Positions 9,504 through 64,000 are shown, numbered from the stretch's first letter. The stretch: DNA of 64,000 nt from a candidate division WWE3 bacterium RIFOXYC1_FULL_40_10 (GCA_001773215.1 MEWB01000001.1:151108-215107); one strand, 5' to 3'. Notes: generated by a model from the letters alone, not told the origin. A program made the numbers and translations.

Positions 9504-9749
9504 ATGGATAAGGCAGAATCAACATTATATAAGACTTCGACATTACCCCTAGCGGTATGCCTGTCCTTAATTTATCCCTTGAAATCAATTGAAAAAGGTA
9601 GCGACAGAAATCTGGTTTTTGTATTTGAAGAAACCAAGGACTTGCTTGATTCCATTGAACTTTATTGGAACAAACAGCTCCAAGTTGAACCGCAGTCATT
9701 TTTCTCCAGAATGCGGGAACTGAAAGCGAGGCTTTATGAACAGGTGTAA
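9504..9749 (+). CDS. Hypothetical small protein
   Basis: 81-aa ORF upstream of primase. Confidence 0.2.
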   Translation: MDKAESTLYKTSTLPLAVCLSLIYPLKSIEKGSDRNLVFVFEETKDLLDSIELYWNKQLQVEPQSFFSRMRELKARLYEQV

Positions 9750-9877
9750 AGTTCCGCAGGTTTCATATAAGGCGGTGGCACTTGCTCGTATTGAGGAAAA
9801 ACTGGACAAAGTTTATCAAATTATTTTCCAGCAAATGGAAAGCATGGGAATGACCCAGGAAGGCAATAAGAATAAAA

Positions 9878-12070: not shown

Positions 12071-12154
12071 TTAAGTTATAATTACACATAGTGTCATGTA
12101 TCCTTTATCGATAAAGATAATCTGACGCTGTATCTGCCCAGAAAGAAGTATTTT

Positions 12155-13750
12155 ATGAGATTAGCTTTTTATGGCAGAGTAAGCACTCAAAGACAGGAAA
12201 AAGAAGAAACGATAGAAAACCAACTTTTGGTAGTTAAAGAAAAATTTGAGAAGGAAGGTCATGTATTTGTTAAGGATTATATCGATGAAAATTGGTCGGG
12301 GATGGTTTTGGAGAGACCTGATTTAGACCAATTAAGGCTTGATGCTGCTTCTGACTTATGGGAGGGCATTGCAATGTACGATACCGATAGATTAAGCCGC
12401 AAGTATATGCACCTGTGTATCCTACAGGAAGAGTTTGAGAAGGCAGGGAAGCAGCTATTGTTTGTTACGATTAAGACACCCGAAAATGATGAAGACCGTC
12501 TGATGTTTGGAATAAAAGGCTTGTTTAGTGAATATGAACGCTACAAAATTTCTGAAAGATTTAGATTAGGGAAGTTACGAAAGGCTCGTTCAGGGCAATT
12601 GATAATTTCACATGCACCTTTTGGGTATCGCCTCTTTAAAAAAACCGACAAAGAACATACTAGGATTGAAATAGAGCCTTACGAAGCAGAAGTAATAAAA
12701 ATGATTTTTACATGGCTTGGCGAAGAGGGTTGTAGCATCAGAGAAGTTATAAGAAGGCTTACAGATAAAGGTATACAGCCAAGAAAGAGCATGCGTAAAG
12801 TTTGGGCAACTTCCACAATAAATAACTTTATACACAACGAAACATATATGGGGACGGCATATTTTGGAAAATCTAAAGCTATAGAACCTAAAAACCCATT
12901 AAAGATTGAAAAGTATAAGCGGATAAAGAAGACTAGCCGTGTTCTTAGACCTAAAGAGGATTGGATACTAATAAAAGTTCCAACTATAATTACAGAAGAG
13001 CTATACAACAAAGTAAGAGCTAGGATGGAAGTTAACTCAAAATTTGCACCTAAGAATAAAAAACATGAGTACCTGTTAACTAGCTTGGTTGCATGTCCAT
13101 GTGGCTACAACAGAGTGGGGGAGCAAGGAAGGTATTACAGATGCAGCCAGCGTATTTATACATTTCCAGTAAAACAGTCCTGTACAGAAGGTGGTGTTGA
13201 TTCCAGCATGCTAGATTCTATGGTATGGCAGGAAATTTCTCAGCTCTTGTTGCAAAAAGACCTGATACTCGACTATTACAATAGGTGGACTGACTCGTTA
13301 AATGCTAAACACAATACTTATGAATCTCAAGTTAAGCCCTTAGAAAGAGGCTTAGACAGCTTAGAACGAGAATCTGCAAGGTATGTGAAAGCATTTGGTG
13401 CTGGATTGCTCGACTTTCAACAGTTTCAGGAGCTAAAAGTAGAGTTGGACAATAAAAGGTTATTGTTACAGGCTCAAATAAGTGTTAAAAAGTCTAGTGC
13501 AGACGAAGCGAAACGGACTCACTTAACAGAGGGAATGGTTGACACTTATTGCCAATTTGCATCAGCAGCGTTAAACGGTTTGTCATTTCAACAGAAACAA
13601 GAGATACTTAGAACGGTGGTTGAGAAGGTTACAGCCACACAAAAGGAAGCAATTATTTATGGTTACATACCCGTTAAAAAACTTAATACAAAGGAGGATA
13701 TCCTAAATGTCGAGCAGCGTCCTATCCATAGGAATCATTGGATTGCCTAA
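12155..13750 (+). CDS. Large serine recombinase (serine integrase)
   Basis: Catalytic N-terminus MRLAFYGRVSTQRQ (Y-x-R-V-S-T-x-x-Q). Recombinase domain, Cys-rich zinc ribbon CPCGYNRVGEQGRYYRCSQR and coiled-coil C-terminus. 531 aa. Confidence 0.8.
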   Translation: MRLAFYGRVSTQRQEKEETIENQLLVVKEKFEKEGHVFVKDYIDENWSGMVLERPDLDQLRLDAASDLWEGIAMYDTDRLSRKYMHLCILQEEFEKAGKQLLFVTIKTPENDEDRLMFGIKGLFSEYERYKISERFRLGKLRKARSGQLIISHAPFGYRLFKKTDKEHTRIEIEPYEAEVIKMIFTWLGEEGCSIREVIRRLTDKGIQPRKSMRKVWATSTINNFIHNETYMGTAYFGKSKAIEPKNPLKIEKYKRIKKTSRVLRPKEDWILIKVPTIITEELYNKVRARMEVNSKFAPKNKKHEYLLTSLVACPCGYNRVGEQGRYYRCSQRIYTFPVKQSCTEGGVDSSMLDSMVWQEISQLLLQKDLILDYYNRWTDSLNAKHNTYESQVKPLERGLDSLERESARYVKAFGAGLLDFQQFQELKVELDNKRLLLQAQISVKKSSADEAKRTHLTEGMVDTYCQFASAALNGLSFQQKQEILRTVVEKVTATQKEAIIYGYIPVKKLNTKEDILNVEQRPIHRNHWIA

Positions 13751-31539: not shown

Positions 31540-31586
31540 TTCACTATTATATATGGAATAAGTTTAGTGGTACAATATCTGCGTTG

Positions 31587-31674
31587 GCCGTGGTGGCGGA
31601 ATGGCAGACGCGAAGGTCTCAAAAACCTTTGTCCTTCACTGGGCATGTGAGTTCGACTCTCACCCACGGCACCA
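31587..31674 (+). tRNA. tRNA-Leu (anticodon CAA), class II with long variable arm, encoded CCA
   Basis: Acceptor GCCGTGG/CCACGGC, anticodon stem AAGGT/ACCTT with loop CTCAAAA, long variable arm, T-arm GTGAG-TTCGACT-CTCAC, discriminator A + CCA. Confidence 0.8.
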
Positions 31675-31688
31675 TAGGATTTAATTAT

Positions 31689-32243
31689 ATGAATGTTACA
31701 GACTTAAAAAACGGAACTATATATCAGGAAAATGGACAACCTCTTTTGGTTGTTAAATACGAGCATATAAAGGTGAGTAGGGGAGGGGCAACTGTAAAAG
31801 TGAAGGTCAAAAACTTGCTCACCGGGCAAGTATTGGAGAAGTCATATGTTGCTTCTGGGCATGTCGAGAGGGCAGACGTTTACAGGAAAAATGCGCAGTA
31901 CCTGTATAAGGAAGGCGAAAATTATTATTTTATGGATCCCGACAGTTTTGAGCAGTTCTTTGTTGATAAGGAAGTAATGGGGGATAGCTACCGCTTTTTA
32001 GTCGAGGGCCAAAAAGTGCAGGCACTATATTTCAATGGCAATGCAGTGTCGATGGAATTACCTATTTCCATGATATTCGAGGTTTCATACACGGAGCCCG
32101 GTTACAAAGGGAATACCGTTTCGAACGTTTTAAAAAGTGCCACACTTGATAATGGTGCTGAAGTGAGAGTTCCTATCTTTATTAAAATCGGCGATAAGGT
32201 TAAAATAGATACGAGAGATGGTTCGTACGTATCTAAAGCCTAA
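31689..32243 (+). CDS. efp: Elongation factor P
   Basis: MNVTDLKNGTIYQENGQPLLVVKYEHIKVSRGGATVKVKVKNLLTGQVLEKSY matches EF-P KOW-like N-domain. The ORF-track start at 31584 overlaps the tRNA, so the real start is ATG 31689. Confidence 0.85.
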   Translation: MNVTDLKNGTIYQENGQPLLVVKYEHIKVSRGGATVKVKVKNLLTGQVLEKSYVASGHVERADVYRKNAQYLYKEGENYYFMDPDSFEQFFVDKEVMGDSYRFLVEGQKVQALYFNGNAVSMELPISMIFEVSYTEPGYKGNTVSNVLKSATLDNGAEVRVPIFIKIGDKVKIDTRDGSYVSKA

Positions 32244-41230: not shown

Positions 41231-41310
41231 AAAAATTTAAGTGAACAAAGGTAGAGTAGTGGAGTGGGGTAGTTTTATTAGCACTATAGGGTCTGCCGTG
41301 ATAAACTATA

Positions 41311-41465
41311 GGGTACGTTTGTCATACAACCTAGGTACAAATGTCATACATATAGGCATTTACCTTGTAGTTAAAGCTTACTTTGCCTCTGCCGGTTCGG
41401 CCATAATGTCATACGTGCTTCTGTAAGGTTGTCATACTTCCTGGGGTAGGGTTGTCATACTTCTC
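41311..41465. repeat. Five direct repeats (iteron-like) with core TGTCATAC, phased 22-23 bp
   Basis: Core copies at 41320, 41342, 41407, 41430, 41453. Units: gggtacgttTGTCATACaacct / aggtacaaaTGTCATACatata / ...ataaTGTCATACgtgc / gtaaggtTGTCATACttcc / gtagggtTGTCATACttct. Confidence 0.6.
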
Positions 41466-41487
41466 GGAGATCCTGATTACCCCGCAT

Positions 41488-41496
41488 TGTGGATAA
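41488..41496. promoter_or_regulatory. Consensus DnaA box (TGTGGATAA = TTATCCACA reverse), followed by AT-rich tract 41540-41610
   Basis: Exact 9-mer match. A single occurrence is not statistically significant alone. Confidence 0.3.
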
Positions 41497-41688
41497 TTAG
41501 TCAGGTGATTGAAAGCACGGGTGTCCATGCCTCTCCGATCAAATAATTATTTACTTTAGAATTAATTAAATAAATAAGAACGTAAAAGGAAAATATCTAA
41601 TTAAGGAATATTTTCCGCTGTTTCCTCCCCCCTGTTATTTAAGTATCCTATTATTTGTATTTGGTGCGTGCTGTCGTTTTTCCCACCT

Positions 41689-41722
41689 ACCACGTCGTTA
41701 AACATACATTATACGACGTGGT
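41689..41722. repeat. Perfect 10-bp inverted repeat (ACCACGTCGT / ACGACGTGGT) with 14-nt loop
   Basis: Read directly: accacgtcgt-taaacatacattat-acgacgtggt. Confidence 0.6.
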
Positions 41723-42050
41723 CAATATCTTATATTTTCCCTACTCTCTTGTTTTTTGATTATTGTTTTGAATTACGAGCTAAGTTTTTTTATTGATGGT
41801 AGAAAGCGTAACTAATCGACTCCAAAAAATTTTAGGCTCCCCTATTATTTCTATTTCGCGTTCTTATGTGGTAATTCCCTCACCCTTTTTGTTAATTCGT
41901 TTTTATTTACCTTGGGCTGTGTTAGATATGTTGGTTTCTCTACTTTTATATTGCCACTGCAGTGTAAAGTGGCAGTTAGCCTCTAGAATCGATTTTAAGC
42001 ATGTTTTAGTATAAAGTTGTAGTTAGTATCATCTTTTAAACGAACTCGTC

Positions 42051-43085
42051 GTGGGATATACTTGTAACACATCTATGAGTAACATTTCTTTGTCATCCGA
42101 TCTAGAAAAAGTGTCAGTTGCGTATCTTGAATATTGTGAAATAGAAAAAAACTTATCTCAGAATACAATCAAGATGTATTATTTTTATTTGACCGATTTT
42201 TTAGATTGGTTAAAAACTTATACCTCGAACCAAACGCCGAAAATTTCGGATTTGAATGATACAAATGTCAAAAAATACCGTCTTGATCTAAATCGTAGGA
42301 TTAGTACCAAATCGAATCAGGAATTTAAGCGGTCTACCCAGAAAACCTTTTTAGTGGCTCTTAGGGCTTTTTTGAAGTATCTGATTGTCATCGAAAACCT
42401 GGAAATAATGTCTCCTGAACAGATAATATTGGGCAAAAGTGATGATCGTGTGCCAAAAGTTCTCAATGAGGAGCAAATGGGACGACTTTTTCAGGTTCAA
42501 GATTTGAGCAAAAGATCGGGTTTGCGCGACAGGTCAATATTGGAGACTTTATTTAGCACCGGTTTACGCGTCAGCGAACTTGTAGCTTTGGATAAAGATG
42601 ATGTAAATCTTATCACAGGTGAATTTACAGTAGTTGGCAAGGGCGGCAAGGCGCGCATCGTATACCTATCGCAGTCAGCAATAATGTGGTTAAAGCGTTA
42701 TTTGACAACAAGAAAAGATCCTTTTCTGCCGTTATTTATTAGATATTCGGGGGTACATATGGTTAAGGATGATTTTGAGGGACACTCTTTAAGGCTAACT
42801 TCCCGAAGTGTTGAGAGGCTTGTGAAAAAGTACACCAAACGTGCGGGAATAAGCATAGATGCAACCCCTCACACTCTTAGGCACACATTTGCAACCGGTT
42901 TACTGCGTGAAGGTGCCGATTTACGTAGTGTTCAGGAGTTGCTCGGCCACTCAAACGTTTCTACCACTCAAATATATACACACGTTACGAATACTCAGCT
43001 TAAAGAGGTTCATAAAAAATTCCATAAAGATGTTAACGAATCCGGCGAAATGGCTGAAGATGTGGTAGAATCGGTTATCAGTTAG
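42051..43085 (+). CDS. Tyrosine recombinase, XerC/XerD-like
   Basis: C-terminal catalytic box HTLRHTFATGLLREGADLRSVQELLGHSNVSTTQIYTHV (R..HxxR...Y). N-terminal SAM-like core-binding domain. Confidence 0.75.
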   Translation: MGYTCNTSMSNISLSSDLEKVSVAYLEYCEIEKNLSQNTIKMYYFYLTDFLDWLKTYTSNQTPKISDLNDTNVKKYRLDLNRRISTKSNQEFKRSTQKTFLVALRAFLKYLIVIENLEIMSPEQIILGKSDDRVPKVLNEEQMGRLFQVQDLSKRSGLRDRSILETLFSTGLRVSELVALDKDDVNLITGEFTVVGKGGKARIVYLSQSAIMWLKRYLTTRKDPFLPLFIRYSGVHMVKDDFEGHSLRLTSRSVERLVKKYTKRAGISIDATPHTLRHTFATGLLREGADLRSVQELLGHSNVSTTQIYTHVTNTQLKEVHKKFHKDVNESGEMAEDVVESVIS

Positions 43086-47679: not shown

Positions 47680-47751
47680 GGTTAATTCCTCCTGAGGGAT
47701 AATTTAACATAATAGGCTCCGGGTAACAATAATTCCCGGAGCCATGGGTAG

Positions 47752-47961
47752 TTATCTCAGCCAAGCTTTTATTGCCGAAAGTCCCTGAATTTTCTTCGGT
47801 TTGGTCCCTGTGTAGTCCCAGATTTTGACTACTTCATCAATCCGGGCTAACACTTTCTGAATCGCACGACGTTTACTGCCAAAATAAGGGCTTTCTTGCC
47901 GCCAGATAATTGTAACTTCGTGAGAATTTTTCAATTCGGCTCCTTTTCTAGCTACAGCCAC
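47752..47961 (-). CDS. Hypothetical small basic protein
   Basis: 69-aa ORF. Unassigned. Confidence 0.25.
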   Translation of the reverse strand: MAVARKGAELKNSHEVTIIWRQESPYFGSKRRAIQKVLARIDEVVKIWDYTGTKPKKIQGLSAIKAWLR

Positions 47962-48269
47962 TTGCTTTTGGGTATGTTTTTAAGATCTATTTTCTCAATC
48001 CGTTCTTTTTTTGTTGACCTCTTAGGTGACTTTTTAGGTTTCAGCCTAATTTTAAGAAGTTCAAGATCATGTGTCAGTTTGGCAATTCTGCTGTTGTAAT
48101 TGTGCTCTTTCCGATCCCAGAAATCGTACTGTGCGTTTTCTCGTAGGTCATTATTCTCTTGGGCTGATAAACCCTTTTCGAGGATCACGTGTTTACGTTC
48201 CTCTTGTAACTCAGCTATTCTCTCTCTTAATTCTTCTATTTTAGTTTTTTCTTTATTCTTGCCATCCAT
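47952..48269 (-). CDS. GreA/GreB N-terminal coiled-coil-domain-like small protein (no C-terminal FKBP-like domain)
   Basis: ...RKHVILEKGLSAQENNDLRENAQYDFWDRKEHNYNSRIAKLTHDLELLKI parallels Gre N-domain (…DLSENAEY.AAKE.Q…IE.RI.EL). 105 aa only. Confidence 0.35.
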   Translation of the reverse strand: MDGKNKEKTKIEELRERIAELQEERKHVILEKGLSAQENNDLRENAQYDFWDRKEHNYNSRIAKLTHDLELLKIRLKPKKSPKRSTKKERIEKIDLKNIPKSKWL

Positions 48270-48333
48270 GTTCGCTATTATACAAAAAAACCCTCGAAAC
48301 TGTTAGATTTCGAAGGTTTTACTGATTTTCTGA

Positions 48334-48675
48334 TCACTTTATCACTAGTCTAAACTTTCCGTCAGGTCCCTTTTCTGTGATTGCCAGTTCCAGGTGAGGT
48401 AAAACTTGAGCGGCTGTATTTTCAGTCAATCTTACAAGTTTTCCATTTTCCTTGTGTACAATTTCGCAGCAGTTGTTATCGGTTACCTTTACTTTAACTT
48501 TACCGTCTCTGTCGACAAAAACCACCGCTAGGGGTTTATCACAAGCCCAAATCACAAAAGTTCCATATTTGTCGTTTGGTGGTCTGGAGATAACTAGATT
48601 CGGGAGTTCGCTCCGGATAGTTACCACATCTAAAGGTTGACCTGCTTTTCCAATATAAGGCATTGCCAGTCCCAT
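48334..48675 (-). CDS. Hypothetical protein
   Basis: 113-aa ORF. Coupled to the upstream 96-aa ORF (1-nt gap). Confidence 0.3.
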   Translation of the reverse strand: MGLAMPYIGKAGQPLDVVTIRSELPNLVISRPPNDKYGTFVIWACDKPLAVVFVDRDGKVKVKVTDNNCCEIVHKENGKLVRLTENTAAQVLPHLELAITEKGPDGKFRLVIK

Positions 48676-48676
48676 G

Positions 48677-48967
48677 TTAGGCTCCTTTTATACAAGTCCG
48701 TCTTGAGATACCCGTAGCCTTTCTTATCAGCCTTGCGTGTGTTTTACAAAGAGGTACAGGTGTGCCTCCTGTAGTTCTGCACGATGGCAGGTTATACCTC
48801 TTCTCAGCAGGGTAAGGGCAGAAACAAATATCTGAAGGGTGCCCAAGGCATCTTCCATTGCCTCCGGGAGGATTGCTCTTTGGATCCTGTACCCAAGCTA
48901 AGTATTTTAGAAATTCATCCCACAGTGAGTCATCAACAGCATTCGGTTTTACAGGGGTCAGGTTCAT
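48677..48967 (-). CDS. Hypothetical Cys-rich small protein
   Basis: 96 aa with 9 Cys (CLGHPSDICFCPYP...CRTTGG..PLCKTH...CIKG). Confidence 0.3.
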   Translation of the reverse strand: MNLTPVKPNAVDDSLWDEFLKYLAWVQDPKSNPPGGNGRCLGHPSDICFCPYPAEKRYNLPSCRTTGGTPVPLCKTHARLIRKATGISRRTCIKGA

Positions 48968-49045
48968 GTCAGTCTCCTTTTCTGCTTATTTTCCCCAGTA
49001 TTATCTCATGTTTATCACACTTTTGCAGGATGCTATCATATATTT

Positions 49046-49849
49046 ATGCATTTCTTTAGGGTATATCTTAAAGTAATTAAGTTGGGTTGGGAGCGGGTGT
49101 TATTGTTCAGGATGAATTTCTTGATGGAGCAGCTCAGGAGCCTTATCCTTATGTTTTCTCTTTATTACTTATATGCTTCCCTTTTTCGCACTCAAGGCAA
49201 TTTGTTTGGCTTTGACAGTGTAAAAATTTCTACTTATATAATTCTATCAAGCATTGTTGCCAATTTTGTTTTTAATTACCAAATGCATGCACTTGCAGAT
49301 TCCATTGCCGACGGCAAGATAAATTCCCTGCTTCTTAAGCCTATTAGTATTTTTTGGTATCACCTGGCTCGGGGAGTTGGTGAGCGAATAATTGAACTTG
49401 GTACTTCTTTTGTCACAGTAGCTCTCTTTTTGATTATTACGCGAGCCCCGTTTTTTTTACAACACTCCCCTACTCTATTCGTATGTTTCGTTCTTTTGCT
49501 GATGTTAGCAACAGCTCTTTTTGCAGTTATGGAGTCTACGGTTGGCTTATTGGCTTTTTGGTTGCTGCGTGCCCATGGTCCGAGATTTTTGTTTCAAACA
49601 TTTTTGGAGGTTCTAAGCGGCAAGTTCTTCCCGCTCACAATATTTCCTGCTTTTTTTGTACAGATTCTAAAGTTTCTGCCTTTTGGCTATGTTTTGTATT
49701 TTCCGATTTCAGTTTACTTTGGATTGGCTACCCCAAAAGAGATAGGTTCGACATTTGGGATTACTATTTTGTGGATCAGTACGATGAGTCTTTTATACGT
49801 CTATATATTAAAAAGAGGGCTTAAAGTTTATGGAGCCTATGGAAGTTAG
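49046..49849 (+). CDS. ABC-2-family transporter permease (pair A)
   Basis: 6-TM 267-aa protein. Paralog of 51603..52394 (DGKINSLLLKPISIFWY vs DGTLSNLLLKPISYNLY). Confidence 0.5.
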   Translation: MHFFRVYLKVIKLGWERVLLFRMNFLMEQLRSLILMFSLYYLYASLFRTQGNLFGFDSVKISTYIILSSIVANFVFNYQMHALADSIADGKINSLLLKPISIFWYHLARGVGERIIELGTSFVTVALFLIITRAPFFLQHSPTLFVCFVLLLMLATALFAVMESTVGLLAFWLLRAHGPRFLFQTFLEVLSGKFFPLTIFPAFFVQILKFLPFGYVLYFPISVYFGLATPKEIGSTFGITILWISTMSLLYVYILKRGLKVYGAYGS

Positions 49850-49852
49850 CGT

Positions 49853-50650
49853 ATGCGTGTAACACTCAAAAAGTATTTAAAGGTTTATAAGATATTTGGG
49901 TCAAACGTTTTGAGCAGCCTTTTTGCTTCGAGCCTTGATTTTTTGCTATTGCTTATCGGAAAACTGGTAATATTCTATATCCTTATGTTTTGGGTAAATT
50001 CAATGTTTAGGCACGTTAGCGACCTAAATGGCTATTCGCGGGATCAAGTAATAGTATTTTTCGCTGTATCCTTTTTAATGGATAAGCTTATTCAGGTGTT
50101 TTTCTATCGCGGGTTTCAGCTGTTACCTGGTTGGATAAATGAAGGTGACTTTGACCGTTTATTATTACTCCCCGCTAATTCGTTGTTTTTGTCGGCTTTT
50201 AGGATTACTGATTGGAATGATATTCTTGTCATGATTCCCATATTATTTGTTTTGGTTTCCAAGTTATTTACTGTTGGGGGTTTTAGTTTACTTAGCATGC
50301 CGATTTTTTTGATGTTTGTATTTTTGGGACTTAGTGTGGCCTTTTGTTTTTTCACAATTGTGTCGTCATTAGCATTTAGGTTTATCAAAATCGAGGCTAT
50401 TATGCGAATATATCGAGACTTTATGTATCTAGCCAAGTTTCCTCCCGAGGTGTTTTCCTTGGGTTGGACTGTACTTTTGACATCAGTTGTTCCGATTTTT
50501 ATCATTGTATCGTTGCCAGCTAAGGCTGTACTAGGATTATTGACCTGGCCGTGGGTTTGCACGGGTTTTGGCTCGTTGGCAATGTTGTTTGTGGTGGCAA
50601 TCAAAGCTTGGAAATGGGGATTACATGGGTACAGTAGTGTTGGGAGTTAA
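49853..50650 (+). CDS. ABC-2-family transporter permease (pair B)
   Basis: 265-aa polytopic protein. Paralog of 52375..53184 (GDFDRLLLLPANSLFL vs GSLDRFLLYPLNALYN). Confidence 0.5.
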   Translation: MRVTLKKYLKVYKIFGSNVLSSLFASSLDFLLLLIGKLVIFYILMFWVNSMFRHVSDLNGYSRDQVIVFFAVSFLMDKLIQVFFYRGFQLLPGWINEGDFDRLLLLPANSLFLSAFRITDWNDILVMIPILFVLVSKLFTVGGFSLLSMPIFLMFVFLGLSVAFCFFTIVSSLAFRFIKIEAIMRIYRDFMYLAKFPPEVFSLGWTVLLTSVVPIFIIVSLPAKAVLGLLTWPWVCTGFGSLAMLFVVAIKAWKWGLHGYSSVGS

Positions 50651-50713
50651 GTCCCCATATGATATACTATCGGACAAGATTGAAGACAGGACGAAATCAT
50701 AACAAAGGAGATT

Positions 50714-51157
50714 TTGGAAATGGATACTTACACAGTGATTTTTTCAAGCTTGTTGTGGCTGGTTATAGTTGTACCAGTGTTGTATCTCTTTACTACTGTT
50801 GGAAAGGGTGTCGTTACCGATTTAATTCGTGAGCGGACCCGGAAAACGCACTTTGCATTTTATGTCCGAGCCAGGTTTAGTCTTGGTGGTTTAACTAGAA
50901 AAGTTGTATTTGTACCCATACGAGATTTAGAACCATTTCCCGGCGAACTCACGGTTTATAAACAACGTAATCTGGACGCAAAATTTTATACGGTCACGGC
51001 CTCAAAAGTGAAGAAAGGTGTCTGGTGGGTTAGCCTGCTAGATGAGAGTGGACTCGGGATGGGTGGATATAAGCTGTACTTAATCGACGGCACGCCGGGA
51101 TGCGTAGACATGTTTGCCCAGGGCGAGGTTTTTGTGATGAGGTTGGACCAGAGTTAG
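50714..51157 (+). CDS. Hypothetical N-terminally membrane-anchored protein
   Basis: 147 aa, single N-terminal TM. Inserted between duplicated permease pairs. Confidence 0.3.
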   Translation: MEMDTYTVIFSSLLWLVIVVPVLYLFTTVGKGVVTDLIRERTRKTHFAFYVRARFSLGGLTRKVVFVPIRDLEPFPGELTVYKQRNLDAKFYTVTASKVKKGVWWVSLLDESGLGMGGYKLYLIDGTPGCVDMFAQGEVFVMRLDQS

Positions 51158-51173
51158 GTGAAGGAGTTGGAAA

Positions 51174-51527
51174 ATGAATGAGATAGCTATCGCTGGTGTT
51201 GTTAGTGCACTTTTGGTAACCGGTGCTTTTCTTTTGTGGGGAGTGTACAGGAAGTACTTTATTTGTAAAACCTCCAAGGGGCTGGTTCTTGTGCCAAAAA
51301 ATGAAACTGAGAAACTGGCTGGTAAATCCGAGCACCCTCGTGAAGTCTTGTTGGCGAATAGCTGCTACATTGTGATTAAGCCCGGATATAAGAGAGGTCA
51401 TTGGATTGGCAGGATTGTAGATATGGATGATCCGAAGAAGAGCTTTGCTACCGGGTACTTAGCCAACTACGAAGGGAAAGTTGGAATTAAGAGCATGCAA
51501 AGCTTCTACGCTTTTCCTACCTTCTAG
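51174..51527 (+). CDS. Hypothetical N-terminally membrane-anchored protein
   Basis: 117 aa, single N-terminal TM. Confidence 0.3.
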   Translation: MNEIAIAGVVSALLVTGAFLLWGVYRKYFICKTSKGLVLVPKNETEKLAGKSEHPREVLLANSCYIVIKPGYKRGHWIGRIVDMDDPKKSFATGYLANYEGKVGIKSMQSFYAFPTF

Positions 51528-51602
51528 GGCCCAGTAGTTAGGTGAGATCTTTTATCCCCGGTATTTCTTTATGCCGGGGATTTTCTTGTTATACTTAATG
51601 CG

Positions 51603-52394
51603 ATGCAGGCAGCGCGAAAATATTTCTCAGTATTAAAAACCGGAGTGCTTAACCAAGCTTCCTATCGAACCCGCTTTTTCGGCAATACCCTTGGAAACAT
51701 CGCTTATTTAGTTGTGTATCTTTTTTTATGGAAATACGTTTTTTCCTCCCAAAGTACAATTCAAGGCTACACACTCGGTGCCATGATGACATATTATGTC
51801 CTAACCTTTTTGTTGAAAAGTTTTACAAACAACAATGGGATCTCTTGGGTCTTATCCGATCATATTCGAGACGGAACTTTATCAAACCTTTTACTAAAGC
51901 CAATTAGCTACAACCTTTATATGTTCCTCAATAGCTTTGCTTCACAGATGTTAGCTGTAATTTTCCCTATTATTTTTATGATAGCAGCTACAGTTTTATA
52001 TAGTGATACGATAAAATCCCCTACCAATCCGGGTATATTTATCTTGGTAGTACTTCTATCTACTATGTTAAACCACCTCATTTTTTCACTTATTGGGCTA
52101 ATTAGTTTTTGGACAATAAAAAGTTGGGGAATATTAAGCTTGTTTGGTCGTTTTGCAGATATCCTAAACGGTTCGATTTTCCCGTTAGATTTTTTACCGG
52201 GATGGGCGATTGGAGTGTTAAACTACCTTCCCTTTAAATACATGATGTTTGTGCCTGTATCAGTGTATTTGGGCCGCTTGGAAATGTCGCCGGCTTTGAT
52301 TTTAATTCAACTTGCATGGATTGCCGGTTTACTCGCTTTGTACTTATTTCTGTGGCCTAAAGCTATGAAAAACTATGAAGCTGTTGGAAATTAA
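51603..52394 (+). CDS. ABC-2-family transporter permease (pair A')
   Basis: Paralog of 49046..49849. Confidence 0.5.
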   Translation: MQAARKYFSVLKTGVLNQASYRTRFFGNTLGNIAYLVVYLFLWKYVFSSQSTIQGYTLGAMMTYYVLTFLLKSFTNNNGISWVLSDHIRDGTLSNLLLKPISYNLYMFLNSFASQMLAVIFPIIFMIAATVLYSDTIKSPTNPGIFILVVLLSTMLNHLIFSLIGLISFWTIKSWGILSLFGRFADILNGSIFPLDFLPGWAIGVLNYLPFKYMMFVPVSVYLGRLEMSPALILIQLAWIAGLLALYLFLWPKAMKNYEAVGN

Positions 52395-53184
52395 GCGATA
52401 TTGGAATTTTTTTAAAAAGATTTTCGAGATGCAGGCTATGCAAAACGCCGAGTATCGGGCAGACATGATAATGGTTTTTTTAGCCTCTTGGGGCTATATG
52501 GTTATGAGCCTGGTCTTTTTGTTTGTGTTTTTTGGAAATGTTACAGAAATAGGGGGTTGGAATAAATACGAAACTATTACCTTATTTGCGGTCGGTCAAC
52601 TTGTTTTTTATTTAAATTGGTCGTTTTTTGGAAGTGTGAGTGAAGCTGTTGGTAAGTTTATTCAGGAAGGTTCTTTGGATAGGTTTTTACTCTACCCTCT
52701 TAATGCCCTATATAATATTTCGGTTTGTAGCCCGGATTTTATTGTCACCATTCCTTCTTTTATTTTTACAGGGGCCGTTCTAGTATGGGGATACATTCAT
52801 TTGGAGTCGGAAACAGGGTTGGCCGGTATGATCCTGTGTGTGTTACTAATGATAGTGGGTTGCCTGCAGGTGACTTTTTATAACTTATGCATCAGTTTAT
52901 TGTCTTTTTGGTTAACTGATGTGCGATCAATCCACCGAGTTAGAATTCGACTTCAGGATTTGTATAAATTTCCCCGAGATATTTACCCCCAAGGCTCCAT
53001 AAGGGCAATTTTTACCTATGTGATTCCAATTGCTCTTACAGCCTATGTTCCGGCGTATGTGCTTGTTAAGGGATTTGATTTGTCACTTATCCTAGTATAT
53101 TTGTTTGTTACTGTAATGCTGTTTGGTTTGACACTATTGCTTTGGGGTATGGGGAAAAAAGTTTATTCGAGTGTTAGCAGCTAG
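52375..53184 (+). CDS. ABC-2-family transporter permease (pair B')
   Basis: Paralog of 49853..50650. Overlaps A' stop. Confidence 0.5.
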   Translation: MKLLEIKRYWNFFKKIFEMQAMQNAEYRADMIMVFLASWGYMVMSLVFLFVFFGNVTEIGGWNKYETITLFAVGQLVFYLNWSFFGSVSEAVGKFIQEGSLDRFLLYPLNALYNISVCSPDFIVTIPSFIFTGAVLVWGYIHLESETGLAGMILCVLLMIVGCLQVTFYNLCISLLSFWLTDVRSIHRVRIRLQDLYKFPRDIYPQGSIRAIFTYVIPIALTAYVPAYVLVKGFDLSLILVYLFVTVMLFGLTLLLWGMGKKVYSSVSS

Positions 53185-55601
53185 TATTTGATACCAAACC
53201 ATCCCAACATTGTTTGCCACAACGGTTTTTTAACTTGTTCATCTTTGGTTTGTATGCCTTGAACCTGAGGTTTGAGTTCTTCCTTAGTGTAACTAACTTG
53301 ACGCTGCTCTTCGGGATTGTTTGCCGGTCCGAGAGATTGTGTGGCTATGCCAAGAGATTGTGGGAAAGATGTGGCTGTTGGATCAATATTTAAGTTAAAC
53401 GCCAAAGCACTTTTATTTCCGGCTTTATCTTCCGAGGTTATTAGTATTTCATGTTTTCCAACACCTAAACTAGTTGGATTTAGGTTGAATTCTCCCGTTT
53501 CCTCGTTGACCGTTATTTTTCCGTCCACATTTATATCAAGAATAGCGCTTTTCTCGGTGTGTCCTATAATAGTGGGATTTTGCTCAGTATAGAAATAATC
53601 CTTGTATATCTCAAAGTTTGGTTCAAAAGTACCAATTTTCGAAATAGAAAGGTTCGGGGGTGTGGTATCCACTTTTATTAGCTGTTCAAACGTATCCGAT
53701 TCATTACCGGCCCGATCTTTTAGTCTTATGTACAATCTCTTCTTTTCGTCCCCAGAAGATAAATGTATCCACATATCGCTGTCGTACTCCTGCCAGTTAG
53801 CATCACTAAAGTCTTGGTGCTGAGCTATCTTAATATATTTCGCTTTTGTGGTATTGTTTGATGTATCAAAGTAAAGCTTTATTCTGTGTTGGTTAGTATA
53901 AATTGTAGTATCCCCCACTTCATACCTATCTTGCTTATTTAGTCCCAGTTCCAGTTCCGAATCTAATTTATTAGGATAGAGGGCGAATAAGTTGGTAGGC
54001 ATATAAACGGTATTCTGGTCATAAGATCTGACATAGATTGTTCCTATGTTATCCCCTAGCGAAGAAACATCGCATGTAAATTTTTCGGTTCCCGAATCGA
54101 AAGTTCCATCGTCAGCAGTACAGGCAGTCCACGCACCGTACGTAGTGTTTGACGTATTCCACTGAATTCCTGAAACGGTAAAAGCCACATTTGTATCAGT
54201 TGCTGTTCCGGTTAATCTACCTGTTTCTATAACATCATTATTACTCAAATCTATTGTAGGGGTACCGTGAGTTACACTGTATAGATAGAGTTTCGCTTTA
54301 GACGCCCCAGCCGAATACCCATACGCAACGACGCCAAAATCGCCCCAGCCATCGCCTTCAAAATCCCCAACATCGATTGGTATTGAGTATCTATCTAGAT
54401 TAGATTGTCCCAAGTTTGTCCAAAAGGGAGATGCCGGAGAAGATGTTCCCCCTTGATATAGATATACTTTCCCTTTGCGGGCGTTAGAAGCATAACCCCA
54501 GGCTCCTATAAGCATTTCGCCATACCCATCGTTATCTAGATCTCCGATTCCTAAGGCATGTCGGCCATAGCCATCAGCGGCATTTTCTTGGGTGTAGGTG
54601 CGTTCGAGTGTGGAAAGATCAGTTGATTTGTAAAGCCTAAATGAGGTTTCGCCTGTTCCTGTGGCAAGTATTCCGTCTGTGCCGTGGCCAAAAAAGTCTC
54701 TTGCCTTATTAACAAGCCAGGTATATATAGCCCCCGCAGAAGGGCCAAAATACCTAGCATCCCTTGATAGCACCCCTGACGAGTTCCCATAAAAAACTCC
54801 CAATGCACCCGCATTTGAATACAAGGTACCGTCATAAGGTTGGCCAATAACTATGTCAGGGTACGCGTCTTCGTTGGCATTAGTTATCTGTAACTCCCCG
54901 TAGGAACCACTAAAGCTACCTACCTCTGGAAAAACATAGGTTGACGAAGGAGATTGGAAATTTTGAATAGGCCCTAGGTATAAAGATAATCTTCCCGTAA
55001 GGGTTGGGTTTGTATAGCTTCTAGAAAAACCAATTATATCGAGATTGCCATCCATGTTGAAGTCGAGCACTTTGTTTGCATAACCTAAGCTATCCATCTT
55101 GCCAAACTCCCCCTGCAGTATTGCGTCTATGCCATTCAAAAGGCTGTCTCCGCCATAGTATATCTCTATTCTTCCCTGAGCTCCGGTGGTCTGATTTCCG
55201 TACCAAGGATTGCCCACAATAAGATCATCTACGCCATCCTTATTTAGATCTCCCTTATCTATTTCGTATCCCATGTTAAAGTCCCCAAGAACTCCTGTGA
55301 CTGTTGCCGTAGGAGAAGTGGCTAGTGTACCGTTTGAGGAAGTTTGGAAATAGTATAGCTTTCCCCTGTTACTACTTGCTGTGGGGTCGGCTAGTACAAA
55401 GTCTATATAGCCATCCCCATTGAAGTCCCCCGCTATGTCGTAGGAAATATACCAGCTAAAATTGGATCCGGCAGATGGTAATAAAGGCCCTGCAGACTGT
55501 TTGAGTTCAATACTTGGAGTTGCCAAAGAGTTAGTATTTACCAGAAAAATGGCAAGAACAGCTACAACACATTTAAGACAGGGTTTTAAATTACACTTCA
55601 C
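53181..55601 (-). CDS. Secreted FG-GAP/integrin-alpha-like repeat protein with C-terminal Ig-like domains
   Basis: Signal peptide. Repeated Ca-binding loops DFNGDGYIDFV, DLNKDGVDDLIVG, DFNMDGNLDIIG, DLDNDGYGEMLIG, DFEGDGWGDFGV. C-terminal block ...WTACTADDGTFDSGTEKFTCDVSS...RSYDQNTVYMP... shared with the 62070 gene. Confidence 0.65.
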   Translation of the reverse strand: MKCNLKPCLKCVVAVLAIFLVNTNSLATPSIELKQSAGPLLPSAGSNFSWYISYDIAGDFNGDGYIDFVLADPTASSNRGKLYYFQTSSNGTLATSPTATVTGVLGDFNMGYEIDKGDLNKDGVDDLIVGNPWYGNQTTGAQGRIEIYYGGDSLLNGIDAILQGEFGKMDSLGYANKVLDFNMDGNLDIIGFSRSYTNPTLTGRLSLYLGPIQNFQSPSSTYVFPEVGSFSGSYGELQITNANEDAYPDIVIGQPYDGTLYSNAGALGVFYGNSSGVLSRDARYFGPSAGAIYTWLVNKARDFFGHGTDGILATGTGETSFRLYKSTDLSTLERTYTQENAADGYGRHALGIGDLDNDGYGEMLIGAWGYASNARKGKVYLYQGGTSSPASPFWTNLGQSNLDRYSIPIDVGDFEGDGWGDFGVVAYGYSAGASKAKLYLYSVTHGTPTIDLSNNDVIETGRLTGTATDTNVAFTVSGIQWNTSNTTYGAWTACTADDGTFDSGTEKFTCDVSSLGDNIGTIYVRSYDQNTVYMPTNLFALYPNKLDSELELGLNKQDRYEVGDTTIYTNQHRIKLYFDTSNNTTKAKYIKIAQHQDFSDANWQEYDSDMWIHLSSGDEKKRLYIRLKDRAGNESDTFEQLIKVDTTPPNLSISKIGTFEPNFEIYKDYFYTEQNPTIIGHTEKSAILDINVDGKITVNEETGEFNLNPTSLGVGKHEILITSEDKAGNKSALAFNLNIDPTATSFPQSLGIATQSLGPANNPEEQRQVSYTKEELKPQVQGIQTKDEQVKKPLWQTMLGWFGIKY

Positions 55602-55636
55602 ATAGATAATTTTATAGTACTATCGCACCTCATGGA

Positions 55637-55831
55637 AGGGTCTCGCCTAGCTATCAGGTCTATACTGGCCTAATTTGGCAATTCAGATCTTGTAAATTCG
55701 GTACACTCAGCTACGTTATAGTGTATTCACCCACCTAAGAGCAAAATCCCATGGCCAAAATTAGTGCGAATTTTTTGCGATCCTATGTGACAACAAGTGT
55801 GAGGCAAGACCTGATAGCTAGGCGAGACCCT
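55637..55831. repeat. Perfect 25-bp terminal inverted repeats (AGGGTCTCGCCTAGCTATCAGGTCT / AGACCTGATAGCTAGGCGAGACCCT) flanking a 145-bp spacer
   Basis: Left arm 55637-55661, right arm 55807-55831, exact reverse complements. Lies entirely in the divergent intergenic region between the FG-GAP gene start (55601) and ABC ATPase start (55855). Confidence 0.7.
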
Positions 55832-55854
55832 GTGCGGTGTAGTATCATTTACAT

Positions 55855-56844
55855 ATGTCTACCACAATAAAAGTTTCTAATCTAACCAAAAACTTCAAAA
55901 CATATAAAAAACAGCCTGGGCTAGCAGGAAGCTTTAAAGCACTGTTCAAGCGTGAGTATAAAACTATATCCGCTGTTAAAAGCCTAAATTTAGAAATTGC
56001 TCAAGGCGAGCTAGTAGGTTTTATCGGCCCAAATGGTGCGGGTAAAACTACCACACTAAAAATGCTTTCAGGGCTTCTCTACCCTTCTTCTGGAGCCGCA
56101 CAGGTTTTGGGATTTACGCCATTTGATCGAAAAAACGAATTCTTAAAGCAAATAAGCCTTGTAATGGGCCAAAAAAACCAACTGTGGTGGGATTTACCTG
56201 CAATTGAAACTTTCAACTTAAATAAAGAGATCTACGAAATTAATGATAAAGATTACAAAGAAACATTAGAAGAGCTCACTGAGCTTTTAGATGTGAAAGA
56301 AGTAATGCATCAACAAGTACGCAAAATGAGCCTTGGTCAGCGCATGAAGTGTGAGTTAATAGCTTCCCTACTCCACCGCCCCAAAGTGTTGTTTTTAGAT
56401 GAACCCACAATTGGCCTTGATGTAGTTATGCAAAAAAAGGTTCGAGAGTTTATAAAAGAATACAATAAGAAGTATAACTCTACGGTGATCTTGACCTCTC
56501 ATTATATGGATGATGTAAAGGAAATTTGTGATCGCGTAATTATAATAAATGAGGGAACTTTAGCTTTTGACGGGGCTTTAAAGCAGTTAACAAAGGATTA
56601 TGCCGACTACAAGATTTTGATACCTATTTTCAATTCGGCTGTAACAAAACCTGAGCTAGAGGAGCTGGGCGAGGTTGTTGAGTTTGATCATCCCAGGGCT
56701 GTTATAAAGGTTCCTAGGGATCGAGTCGCCTCTGTGGCAGGCAGAGTGTTGGAGAAGTACGACGTTGATGATTTAGACATTAACGAGCCTAAACTTGAGG
56801 ATGTGATAAGACAAATTTTTGAGAAGCCGAGTAGTCTGATTTAG
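55855..56844 (+). CDS. ABC transporter ATP-binding protein
   Basis: Walker A GPNGAGKTTTLKML, signature-like MSLGQRMK, Walker B VLFLDEPTIGLD, H-loop TSHYM. Confidence 0.85.
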   Translation: MSTTIKVSNLTKNFKTYKKQPGLAGSFKALFKREYKTISAVKSLNLEIAQGELVGFIGPNGAGKTTTLKMLSGLLYPSSGAAQVLGFTPFDRKNEFLKQISLVMGQKNQLWWDLPAIETFNLNKEIYEINDKDYKETLEELTELLDVKEVMHQQVRKMSLGQRMKCELIASLLHRPKVLFLDEPTIGLDVVMQKKVREFIKEYNKKYNSTVILTSHYMDDVKEICDRVIIINEGTLAFDGALKQLTKDYADYKILIPIFNSAVTKPELEELGEVVEFDHPRAVIKVPRDRVASVAGRVLEKYDVDDLDINEPKLEDVIRQIFEKPSSLI

Positions 56845-61360: not shown

Positions 61361-61376
61361 GCTACTTATTATACAG

Positions 61377-62004
61377 GAGCTGCTCCAACGCTAGAGCAGC
61401 TCCAAAGGCGGAGCTACTCCTGTAGGAATGGAAATTACTCTCTTCCCCTTTCCCTAAAATCTAGATATACAGGTATATATGCCTGCGATTAACTCCTTAA
61501 AAAAATACGTTCAAGGTGGAATTTATCATGTATACAACAGGGGAAATCGGAAAAGTGAAATTTTTTTAGCGGCTCAGGACTATGATATTTTCTGTTATTT
61601 ATTGGAAAGATATTTACTCCCATGTCCTGTTTCTATGAGATGCAAGAGCTACTCTAACCAGATTAAAGTACACGCTTTTTGTTTGATGCCCAATCACTTT
61701 CATCTACTGCTAGAGCAGATCCAAGAGAGGGCTATATCCAGCTTCATGCACGGTCTTTGTCTGAGTTATTCTATGATATTTAACAAACGGTATGAGAAGG
61801 TTGGCAGACTGTTTCAAGGAGTGTACAAAGCACGTCTTATCACAAGAGAATCCGAGATAAGCACCGTGGCATCTTACATACACATCAACCCTTCCGAAGT
61901 AGGAGCTACTCCGGAGGATTACCCCTATTCTAGTTATGGTTGTTATCTAGGGAAAGACACGTGTAGATTTCTAACGACGGAGCTGCTCCAACGCTAGAGC
62001 AGCT
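61377..62004 (+). mobile_element. IS200-like / REP-associated tyrosine transposase (RAYT) element bounded by identical 27-bp hairpin sequences
   Basis: GGAGCTGCTCCAACGCTAGAGCAGCTC present at 61377-61403 and 61978-62004 in the same orientation. Each forms a 9-bp stem (GAGCTGCTC/GAGCAGCTC) with 8-nt loop. Additional nested palindromes at both ends. Confidence 0.7.
61479..61997 (+). CDS. tnpA: HUH-family Y1 transposase (IS200 TnpA / RAYT)
   Basis: YHVYNRGNRKSEIF (N-terminal beta-strand block), HUH motif CLMPNHFHLLLE, C-terminal catalytic Tyr region GVYKARLI...YPYSSYGCY. 172 aa. Confidence 0.75.
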   Translation: MPAINSLKKYVQGGIYHVYNRGNRKSEIFLAAQDYDIFCYLLERYLLPCPVSMRCKSYSNQIKVHAFCLMPNHFHLLLEQIQERAISSFMHGLCLSYSMIFNKRYEKVGRLFQGVYKARLITRESEISTVASYIHINPSEVGATPEDYPYSSYGCYLGKDTCRFLTTELLQR

Positions 62005-62069
62005 CTGGATTCACACTGCTCTTGGGTCACATTCTATCCCTTAACAACTTATTTTGTTACGATTAATCT

Positions 62070-64000
62070 ATGCCTGTAATTAGATATAACCTGCTTTTTT
62101 TAATTACTCTCCTGTGCATTTTGTGTCCTGTTGCATTTGCAACTCCTTCGCTAACTTTAAAGGGCACTGCAACGGATGGTACTTCTAATACCCCATACGC
62201 CTCCAGAGTATACTTTGGTGACTATAACGGGGACGGGTACGACGATTATGCTACTTCAAACGGCCAGACTGGTAATGGCAAGGTCTACATCTATTTTGGC
62301 GGACTTCTCTTTGATAATACAGTTGATATCACAATTACGGGTGAGGCCGCCAGCGATTTTTTTGGAAGTCAGGAGGATGGTATCTCTTTGGTTGATTTAA
62401 ACGGAGACGGGAGTGACGAGTTAATAGTGGGAGCTCCTTATAACGATGCGGGAGGAAGTAATGTTGGGAAAATTTACATCTATACTGGTGGTGTTTTAAG
62501 CAGTGGTACCTATGCGGCCAGCGTGGCGAATACTACGCTTGTAGGTAATTTAACCGACAGGAGACAACTTGGTAGGTCGGTATCTTATGGCGATGCGGAT
62601 AATGATGGTGATATGGATTTACTTATTGGATCCATAGCAGAGTCTCAGGCGGTCTCCAAACTTCATATATTTACGAATTCATCAGGAGTGGTGGATTTTT
62701 CAGCTAGTTGGGCGATACTTTCGCTGGCGGGCTCCACTGCATATAGTGTATTTAGCAGAGCTATGGCGTACGACTTCAATGATGACAGTTTCAACGATAT
62801 ATTAGTGTCTGATGGTTGGGGGTATTCCTATACAGGGAAAGACCTCAACATTAGTTTTGGGGATGGCACAACAGCTTTTGGAACTACAACATCGTTTCCC
62901 GAGAGTTCCTCAGCCAGTGCCTATGGCCGTGCCAATTCGTACGATGTGTCGGACATCAACTTGGACGGGAAAGAGGATATTTGCGCTAGCATTTACACAG
63001 GCAGTTCTAATAGGGGATCAGTATTTTGCTGGTTTGGGAGAGAGACTTTTTTATCAAGCTACGCCCAAAGTACTGCAGATATCACATTAACCGGTCCAAA
63101 TGCCGGTGACTATCTTGGAAGAGGCCTTACTATTTCAGATGTTAACAATGATGGAAAGCCGGATCTATTAGCGGGAGCAACTCAGTGGGGGGCAACAAAA
63201 AGGGGGGCTTTATATATATATAAAGGAACCGGGGAAACCTTTTCTAGTTCTCCCTGGCTTACTTATGCAAAGACTAGCGGAACCACCAGTTTCGGCGCTT
63301 CTGTGTCAACGGGAGATCTAGATAGCGATGGTTGGGTGGATATAAATGTAACGACTGGAGGCCAATGGGTAGGCGGAAGCGGGGCTTCGTATATAAATAT
63401 TTTCGAGATTGACCATGGAAATCCGACCATAAGCGTGGCTGGCGCGTCTAGCGGAAGTGAAATGGAAGGGGAAGCTATTTCCGGAGATCCCGGCTACACT
63501 GTTAAGGGAGTTGAGTGGAGTACCTCAGCCAACTTATCCGGTACATGGACCGCGTGCACGCCCAAAGATGGAACTTTCGACGAATCTACCGAGGAGTTTT
63601 CGTGCAATGTTTCCAGTTTTGAAGATGGGGAAAGCGAAATATATTTGCGATCCTATGACCAAAATGATGTGTACATGCCGGAACGGTTGATTATGCATAA
63701 AGATTTTACTTTGGACAAAGAAAGTCCCGGTGAAAGCGACCAACTAGTGGGTCTATCCAAGGATAATCTCGTGCAACTTGGTTCTAAAACGCTAAAATCT
63801 GATGACCGAGAATTAACTTTGTACTTTGATGTTAAGGATTCAACAACCGAGGTTAAGTACTTAATGCTTTCCCAAAAGGATGATTTTAAGGGTGCGAAAT
63901 GGAAGGCATATGACGGGGACATCAAACTTAGTTTTGATCACGATGGAAAGAAAAATCTATTTATTAGATTTAAAGATGATGCGGGTAATGTTTCTGATAC
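62070..64000 (+). CDS. Partial (3' end beyond window) secreted FG-GAP repeat protein, paralog of 53181..55601
   Basis: ATG at 62070 with signal peptide MPVIRYNLLFLITLLCILCPVAFA. Repeats DYNGDGYDDY, DLNGDGSDELIVG, DADNDGDMDLLIG, DINLDGKEDI, DVNNDGKPDLLAG, DLDSDGWVDI. Block SGTWTACTPKDGTFDESTEEFSCNVSS...RSYDQNDVYMP homologous to the other gene. Open to window end and not in ORF track for lack of stop. Confidence 0.6.
   Translation, partial: MPVIRYNLLFLITLLCILCPVAFATPSLTLKGTATDGTSNTPYASRVYFGDYNGDGYDDYATSNGQTGNGKVYIYFGGLLFDNTVDITITGEAASDFFGSQEDGISLVDLNGDGSDELIVGAPYNDAGGSNVGKIYIYTGGVLSSGTYAASVANTTLVGNLTDRRQLGRSVSYGDADNDGDMDLLIGSIAESQAVSKLHIFTNSSGVVDFSASWAILSLAGSTAYSVFSRAMAYDFNDDSFNDILVSDGWGYSYTGKDLNISFGDGTTAFGTTTSFPESSSASAYGRANSYDVSDINLDGKEDICASIYTGSSNRGSVFCWFGRETFLSSYAQSTADITLTGPNAGDYLGRGLTISDVNNDGKPDLLAGATQWGATKRGALYIYKGTGETFSSSPWLTYAKTSGTTSFGASVSTGDLDSDGWVDINVTTGGQWVGGSGASYINIFEIDHGNPTISVAGASSGSEMEGEAISGDPGYTVKGVEWSTSANLSGTWTACTPKDGTFDESTEEFSCNVSSFEDGESEIYLRSYDQNDVYMPERLIMHKDFTLDKESPGESDQLVGLSKDNLVQLGSKTLKSDDRELTLYFDVKDSTTEVKYLMLSQKDDFKGAKWKAYDGDIKLSFDHDGKKNLFIRFKDDAGNVSD

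Follow-up and report, generated by a model that had tools for sequence, protein, structure and literature searches.

The 195-bp unit that lies between two divergent genes of the candidate division WWE3 bacterium RIFOXYC1_FULL_40_10, a tiny, uncultured member of the CPR/Patescibacteria known as a MAG from the Rifle aquifer, looks more like an orphan insertion bounded by inverted repeats than a flip switch. The repeat itself was confirmed; it is perfect, has sharp edges and is unique. The unit was tentatively interpreted as a single-copy foldback insertion, or the relic of one, that is static in the sampled population (probability about 0.4). The invertible promoter put forward in the original prediction was not supported. 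All positions are those of the window, meaning the whole 64,000-nucleotide stretch of DNA that was analysed. The features of the locus were as follows.

53181-55601, minus strand: gene for an FG-GAP/Big_13 surface protein of 806 aa, GTG start at 55601, with an N-terminal signal-like segment
55609-55614, minus strand: putative -10-like box TAAAAT, 7 nt before the FG-GAP GTG, outside the left arm
55637-55661, no strand: left arm of the perfect inverted repeat, AGGGTCTCGCCTAGCTATCAGGTCT
55662-55806, no strand: interior, 145 bp, GC 40.7%
55751-55870, plus strand: 39-codon ORF that starts inside the segment, crosses the right arm and has its stop 16 nt inside the ATPase gene
55780-55807, minus strand: weak sigma-70-like site TTGCCT-16-TAGGAT (8/12 matches), at present facing the FG-GAP gene
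55807-55831, no strand: right arm, AGACCTGATAGCTAGGCGAGACCCT, exact reverse complement of the left arm
55843-55848, plus strand: putative -10-like box TATCAT, 6 nt before the ATPase ATG, outside the right arm
55855-56844, plus strand: ABC-2-type transporter ATPase gene, ATG at 55855

The arms were re-inspected and found to be exact reverse complements at 25 of 25 positions, AGGGTCTCGCCTAGCTATCAGGTCT (55637-55661) pairing with AGACCTGATAGCTAGGCGAGACCCT (55807-55831) across the 145 bp, as originally described. The claim that such a repeat would arise by chance with negligible frequency also held; in 100 dinucleotide-preserving shuffles of the window the number of arm matches expected by chance was 0.00, even at 3 mismatches. 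Within the left arm GGTCT occurs twice in direct order and a TAGCTA palindrome lies at the centre, and overall dyad symmetry is absent. When 87 kb of the strain's own genome was scanned, this was the sole long perfect inverted repeat within 600-bp spans. The runners-up at up to 600 bp were several 14-15 nt pairs at 93% complementarity, or unrelated REP hairpins by a RAYT gene. The edges of the repeat are sharp, in that the symmetry was continued neither in the outer flanks (p=0.12) nor at the inner ends (p=0.08) by shuffle test. A longer inverted repeat with face-to-face promoters was considered from the flank pairing TACTAtCGCAC / GTGCGgtgTAGTA in RNA folds and was dropped because this pairing was insignificant by shuffling (p=0.12). 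Folding of the region is governed by the stem, with z=-6.5 and -6.6 for RNA of the two strands and z=-7.0 for DNA. Each arm also holds one BsaI-type type IIS site (GGTCTC / GAGACC, 55639-55644 and 55824-55829), both pointing inward, which is probably coincidence.

The element was identical base for base in the ENA megahit contigs, the ANAN16 scaffolds, the NCBI MAG GCA_001773055.1 and a Logan contig, which together span five samples and three assemblers. An assembly artefact was dismissed on the strength of this identity, and vector contamination was excluded because the locus is embedded in contigs as long as 900 kb that came from several environmental samples. Locus L016 also carries the identical element. 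Own-strain variants, collected through the 90% clusters to which the ATPase and FG-GAP proteins belong, differed only in how the start codon was translated and by one V275I in the ATPase. The sampled population is clonal and offers neither covariation nor an empty site. The 195-bp unit survives this scrutiny as a discrete, non-random element at the DNA level.

The divergent arrangement of the flanking genes was confirmed, with the FG-GAP start 35 nt from the left arm and the ATPase start 23 nt from the right arm. To the right, the ABC-2-type ATPase gene (plus strand) is followed by a gene for the CCA-adding enzyme and then by gyrB and holB on the minus strand. Upstream, four ABC2_membrane_6 permease genes lie on the plus strand. 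The order of this ABC-2 transporter locus (49046-56844) is unusual, in that four to six permease genes precede the ATPase gene. Before the first permease, the 1,366-bp stretch 47680-49045 that begins at the DHH/DHHA2 gene contains only short overlapping ORFs (≤113 aa) and has no Rfam match. Elsewhere in the window, a tRNA-Leu(CAA) at 31587-31674 is overlapped by the listed efp ORF (31584-32243), so the true efp start lies further downstream.

The same ATPase locus was inspected in three relatives (L004, L006 and L009), the closest available, whose ATPases are 73-79% identical to that of the window. In L006 and L009 the gap from the last permease gene to the ATPase gene is about 35 bp, and in L004 a DHH gene lies between the two. 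The ATPase identity of the relatives with the 35-bp gap is 73-74%. Neither an FG-GAP gene nor any element-like sequence was present at this locus in the three relatives. In the window the permease C-terminus (...YSSVSS*) is kept, and the GTACAATAA motif that the relatives conserve just upstream of the ATPase ATG is missing. A block of about 2.67 kb, consisting of the FG-GAP gene and the 253-bp spacer, stands in place of the ancestral permease-ATPase junction. The block is lineage-specific, since the permease adjoins the ATPase in relatives and the FG-GAP gene and spacer intervene here. The right flank was also compared with the ancestral ATPase leader, and the similarity was insignificant (p=0.15-0.54). 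The order and orientation of gyrB, holB, DHH, gyrA and the permease genes vary among L004, L006, L009 and the window, from which repeated inversions and rearrangements of the neighbourhood are deduced.

The FG-GAP/Big_13 surface-protein family has at least three members, of 806, 726 and 1021 aa and 33-36% identical, at 53181-55601, 62070-64000+ and L011 10001-13066. No homologue closer than these 33-36% paralogues in the strain's own genome was found for the 806-aa protein, and the region upstream of the 36% paralogue has no such inverted repeat. Both FG-GAP proteins of the window share the C-terminal tail LWQT(M/V)LGW(F/L)GI(K/E)Y, and both genes are lineage-specific insertions relative to other WWE3 genomes. 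The second (62070 onward), together with a RAYT gene, is inserted between holB and the type IV pilus genes. This 726-aa FG-GAP gene is directly upstream of the pilus cluster, which comprises pilB, pilT, pilC, pilin and prepilin peptidase genes.

The hexamer TATCAT found ahead of the ATPase gene also occurs at the same spacing before the genes at 16006 and 49046. A -10-like hexamer was present 5-8 nt before the start codon in 11/26 operon-leading genes, as against 11.4% of all ATG trinucleotides (p=6e-5); examples in the window are the genes at 16006, 27703, 39381, 49046, 51603 and 60683. A -10 box 5-8 nt before the start codon is the signature of a leaderless mRNA, and the enrichment suggests that leaderless mRNAs, or leaderless-type promoters, are widespread in this WWE3 genome. 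From this enriched sequence pattern we infer the promoter positions of both flanking genes. If these boxes are working promoters, inverting the segment would leave them in place because both lie outside the arms.

Within the segment, the promoter prediction that had been proposed returned a single weak candidate. The site TTGCCT-16-TAGGAT is the sole sigma-70-like match that lies essentially within the segment, its first base being the inner base of the right arm; at 8/12 it is weak, and the 145-bp interior contains no extended -10 box. The best sigma-70-like match of the region is ATTACA-17-TATAGT at 55590-55618 on the plus strand (9/12). In a hypothetical flipped state the small ORF would again have 39 codons and would meet the FG-GAP start codon in a GTGA overlap. 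By exact look-up in a protein collection the present-state and flipped-state small ORFs were never called as genes, a look-up that is uninformative. The 39-codon ORF is regarded as a post hoc curiosity rather than a sign of a gene, and it could be due to chance. Should flipping be shown, it would suggest a switch with a leader ORF that is coupled to the gene then placed downstream.

In the interpretation favoured here, the two 25-bp arms and the 145 bp between them would form a discrete single-copy foldback insertion. Most likely it would be what remains of a small mobile element of the non-autonomous kind, or a scar from insertion of the FG-GAP gene into the ABC-transporter operon. The element would be lodged between two back-to-back leaderless-type promoters, with transcription of each flanking gene driven by a separate -10 box that lies outside the arms, 6-7 nt ahead of the start codon. 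With the promoters so placed, the contribution of the element would be limited to the upstream DNA beyond about -24 for the ATPase gene and -36 for the FG-GAP gene, and the element would be static in the sampled population.

A mobile or insertional origin is suggested by spacer-length arithmetic and by the location at a rearrangement junction. The 253-bp spacer less the 195-bp unit leaves 58 bp, which is close to the genome's compact divergent spacers of 44, 47 and 53 bp. The match of 25/25 followed by no similarity at all has the look of the termini of inserted DNA, unlike a decaying duplication. The 2.67-kb block has replaced the relatives' junction of about 35 bp, and the leader motif has been lost. 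The probable leaderless-type -10 hexamers of both flanking genes outside the arms also agree with an insertion, and the interior is without RNA structure, Rfam match or extended -10 box. Orientation was identical in seven own-strain loci from five samples. Mobile DNA is active nearby, in the form of the RAYT/REP arrangement and second FG-GAP gene 5.6 kb away and of the large serine recombinase element at 1-13.7 kb. Without the 195-bp unit, the empty site would be expected to have CTCATGGA joined directly to GTGCGGTG; no such site could be compared, since none of the relatives at hand has the FG-GAP gene.

Several results weigh against an insertion, and the same results bear on the suggestion that the unit is a MITE. 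No direct repeat of 2-11 bp that could be a target-site duplication was present at the junctions of the unit. A second copy of the arm was sought, allowing up to 7 substitutions, and none was found in about 95 kb of the strain's own genome (window, L011 and L013), roughly a tenth of it. The 20-mer arm core had no match in GTDB representative genomes, JGI metagenome contigs or IMG/VR, and blastn of the 253-bp spacer against plasmid and phage records gave chance matches only. Six-frame stop-free translations of the element, submitted as a chimeric query, left no trace in 5.8 billion protein clusters. The window contains no transposase with matching ends, and there was no DDE transposase among ORFs ≥150 aa. 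The unit does have the terminal inverted repeats on a small non-coding unit that are a MITE trait, and the MITE reading nevertheless fails within the sequence that could be read, because there is neither a target-site duplication nor a further copy. The search for dispersed arm copies, proposed in advance as a test of that reading, thus came back empty. A repeat intact at 25/25 must also be very young or actively maintained, which counts against an old relic; active maintenance would suit a functional element better than a relic.

Two smaller resemblances to mobile DNA were considered. The arm contains GGGTCT, which resembles GGGGTCT, the start of the Tn3 inverted repeat, a likeness at chance level for 6 nt. 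A 19/22 match of the interior to 48078-48099 had no extension and was within chance for the whole window. A REPIN was rejected, since the arms are not the REP sequence that flanks the RAYT gene and the sequences are unrelated. The RAYT-like gene (61479-61997, plus strand) encodes a Y1_Tnp protein of 172 aa whose best NCBIfam match is RAYT (REP-associated tyrosine transposase), below the family cut-off. It is bracketed by two identical direct copies of the self-complementary 27-mer GGAGCTGCTCCAACGCTAGAGCAGCTC (61376-61402 and 61979-62005), with shorter related GGAGCTACTCC motifs at 61411-21 and 61903-13. The organization of the stretch 61376-62005 is that of a classic REP/RAYT locus, here in a CPR bacterium.

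Recombinases were surveyed with Pfam and NCBIfam on window ORFs ≥150 aa and on a further 10 kb past the right end. No Hin/Gin-type small serine invertase or Fim-type invertase was found from -55 kb to +18 kb around the element. The two recombinase genes identified in the window were as follows.

12155-13750: large serine recombinase, 531 aa, Resolvase and Recombinase domains
42051-43085: Xer-like tyrosine recombinase, GTG start, best NCBIfam matches XerD/XerC

The large serine recombinase adjoins a Toprim_2 primase-like protein of 730 aa, in a region that covers window 9878-13750 and perhaps 1-13750. AAA_5 and VWA proteins, together with several ORFs that match no Pfam family, are encoded upstream of the Toprim_2 gene. 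The region probably represents an integrated mobile element with its end next to ychF and the recombinase as its integrase.

Orientation was scored in the assemblies, which show the majority state only; the present junction was found in 7/7 own-strain loci from five samples and the flipped junction in 0/7. The Logan contig running through the element is 58.9 kb long (k=31). The flipped-state junctions would read CTCATGGAAGGGTCTCGCCTAGCTATCAGGTCTTGCCTCACAC and AGGCCAGTATAGACCTGATAGCTAGGCGAGACCCTGTGCGGTG. A 43-nt flipped-junction pattern had no match in the JGI metagenome and GTDB genome collections, a negative that is uninformative because the 20-nt core of the present-state arm is itself missing from both. 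The protein index includes JGI contigs of up to 903 kb with the flanking genes, yet the JGI metagenome contigs do not contain the arm core. The DNA collections that were scanned either lack the strain or have its region masked.

DNA inversion would be the consequential explanation, since full-text literature search found no report of an inverton in CPR/Patescibacteria. A recombinase encoded elsewhere would flip the 145 bp and redirect an internal promoter, or a promoter and leader ORF, to the FG-GAP or the ATPase gene, with phase-variable expression of the FG-GAP protein, a probable host-attachment protein, as the outcome. The geometry fits such a switch, with perfect inverted repeats around a short intergenic segment, divergent genes and a neighbouring surface protein, and sharp-edged perfect arms would be expected of sites held identical for recombination. 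The promoter-like site inside the segment is directed at the FG-GAP gene, weak as it is at 8/12 and without an extended -10 box, and the internal ORF would, whichever way the segment lies, terminate in an overlap with the start codon of the next gene. Against this, the -10 boxes that probably serve both genes lie outside the arms, and a single orientation was seen in all seven loci, including the k=31 contig that passes straight through the element; the flipped-state tests had low power, since the collections scanned were without even the present-state arm. Recombinase core sites usually have dyad symmetry, which the arms lack. The arms, at 25 nt, also exceed the 10-20 nt that is typical of switch repeats (PMC5903667). 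The lack of an invertase within -55/+18 kb is not decisive, because recombinases can be encoded far from their switches (PMC5903667) and a Xer-type enzyme inverts surface-antigen loci in the genome-reduced Ureaplasma (PMC3599477); in the window the Xer-like recombinase is 12.5 kb and the large serine recombinase 42 kb away. Taken as a promoter-bearing segment that toggles two genes, the original proposal was not supported by these observations, and inversion as a whole is judged unlikely. A WWE3 switch run in trans by the Xer-like or another distant recombinase, phase-varying a probably host-attaching integrin-like (FG-GAP) protein, is doubtful, as is inversion at low frequency.

Two further explanations, both rather improbable and each given less weight than inversion, would leave the DNA in one orientation. 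The arms could belong to a static cis-regulatory element, either as paired regulator sites that loop 170 bp and co-control both promoters or as a 25-bp duplex that is transcribed from an upstream promoter and serves RNase III or stability within a long 5' UTR. Relative to the inferred promoters, the arms occupy about -24 to -48 on the ATPase side and -36 to -60 on the FG-GAP side, and transcription from the ATTACA-17-TATAGT site (55590-55618, plus strand, 9/12) would run toward the ATPase gene through the entire hairpin. The stem is very stable as RNA (z=-6.5) and as DNA (z=-7.0), and Watson-Crick perfection without G-U pairs is expected if both strands must pair. Transcription-factor sites are, however, rarely identical across 25 bp, and the arms have no dyad symmetry; the interior is unstructured and belongs to no Rfam family, relatives have no homologous element, and the leaderless-type -10 boxes speak against inclusion of the hairpin in the main transcripts. 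Alternatively, the repeat could be a functionless, immobile by-product of a recent inverted duplication or template switch at the junction formed when the FG-GAP gene was inserted and the operon split. The position exactly at a lineage-specific rearrangement junction, the single copy without target-site duplication and the reshuffling of the neighbourhood among WWE3 genomes (order and orientation of gyrB, holB, DHH and permease genes in L004, L006, L009 and the window) agree with this. A sharp-edged 25-bp duplication placed 145 bp apart, with unrelated sequence between, is not the usual outcome of template switching, and the FG-GAP gene has diverged to 33-36% from its paralogues, so that an equally old junction should show mismatches in the arms.

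RNA-level explanations were examined separately. The element had no Rfam match at the gathering threshold, with chance matches only at E up to 10. The interior folded no better than random, with z=+1.46 and +0.05 relative to shuffles for the two strands, and no homologous element for covariation was present in the relatives fetched (L004, L006 and L009). A structured RNA gene or processing stalk was rejected, there being no Rfam family and no structure in the interior. The long RNA stem in a 5' UTR that had been offered as an alternative is disfavoured, because the probable transcription starts lie outside the arms and the interior is unstructured.

Other known element classes were compared and rejected. 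The neighbours are FG-GAP and ABC ATPase genes with no adjacent reverse transcriptase, which does not fit a retron msr-msd. No intrinsic terminator was predicted in 55400-56000, the loop being 145 nt long with no T-run after either arm. An attC/dif-like site was rejected because a defining feature is absent. For a replication origin, GC skew was positive over the whole window with only gene-strand dips, and 55602-55854 contained no DnaA box at ≤1 mismatch. Over the window, DnaA-box-like 9-mers (≤1 mismatch) were over-represented, with 30 observed and 18 expected. The window's only perfect DnaA box, TTATCCACA (41488-41496), lies in an 820-bp gap without long ORFs before the Xer-like gene (window 41231-43085).

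The foldback insertion was ranked above the inverton, and the inverton above the cis-regulatory element and the rearrangement by-product, which were rated alike. The original prediction described the anatomy correctly and was right to list an inverton, a MITE and an RNA stem, none of which came through its own test. If the unit is only an orphan insertion, its import is small, as one more small foldback DNA at a rearrangement junction. It also serves as a caution that a perfect inverted repeat beside a surface-protein gene does not alone make a switch. If flipping is true, this would be the first phase-variation switch reported in ultra-small episymbiotic CPR bacteria. Under its control would be a strain-specific integrin-like surface protein whose gene neighbours those of the type IV pilus. 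Variation of the host-contact surface would then be directly testable with existing Rifle metagenomic reads. As a by-product of the work, the genome appears to lean heavily on leaderless-type promoters.

The element was finally set beside known systems. The invertons compared were E. coli fimS, the Mpi-controlled polysaccharide promoters of Bacteroides fragilis, C. difficile Cdi1-7 and the Xer-type loci of Ureaplasma/Mycoplasma. The unit resembles these in having inverted repeats around a short intergenic segment (100-300 bp in invertons) beside a surface-protein gene, and their recombinase may likewise be encoded far off (PMC5903667, PMC3599477). It differs in that no second orientation was observed, that it has no convincing promoter inside and that its likely core promoters are placed beyond the arms; its 25-nt arms are perfect, where inverton repeats usually measure 10-20 nt and are often imperfect, and the 73 kb surveyed around it contained no dedicated invertase. 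As in RNase III processing stalks, transcription of the 25-bp perfect duplex would yield a good substrate for RNase III. Unlike those stalks and long 5'-UTR hairpins, it encloses no structured or conserved RNA and the probable transcription starts are outside the arms; nor are there G-U pairs or compensatory changes that would point to RNA-level selection. With REPINs the unit shares two short inverted repeats that form a hairpin, and a RAYT-like gene is 5.6 kb away. Its arms are unrelated to the REP hairpins that flank the RAYT gene (GGAGCTGCTCCAACGCTAGAGCAGCTCC), neither arm is a palindrome in itself, their separation of 145 nt is large by REPIN standards and the unit was found as a single copy. 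From MITEs, including the Tn3-derived TIMEs, it is set apart by having no target-site duplication, no other copy found and no partner transposase with matching ends. It is like them in being a small (195 bp) non-coding intergenic foldback unit with perfect terminal inverted repeats, and its size equals the excess of the spacer over the genome's compact divergent spacers.
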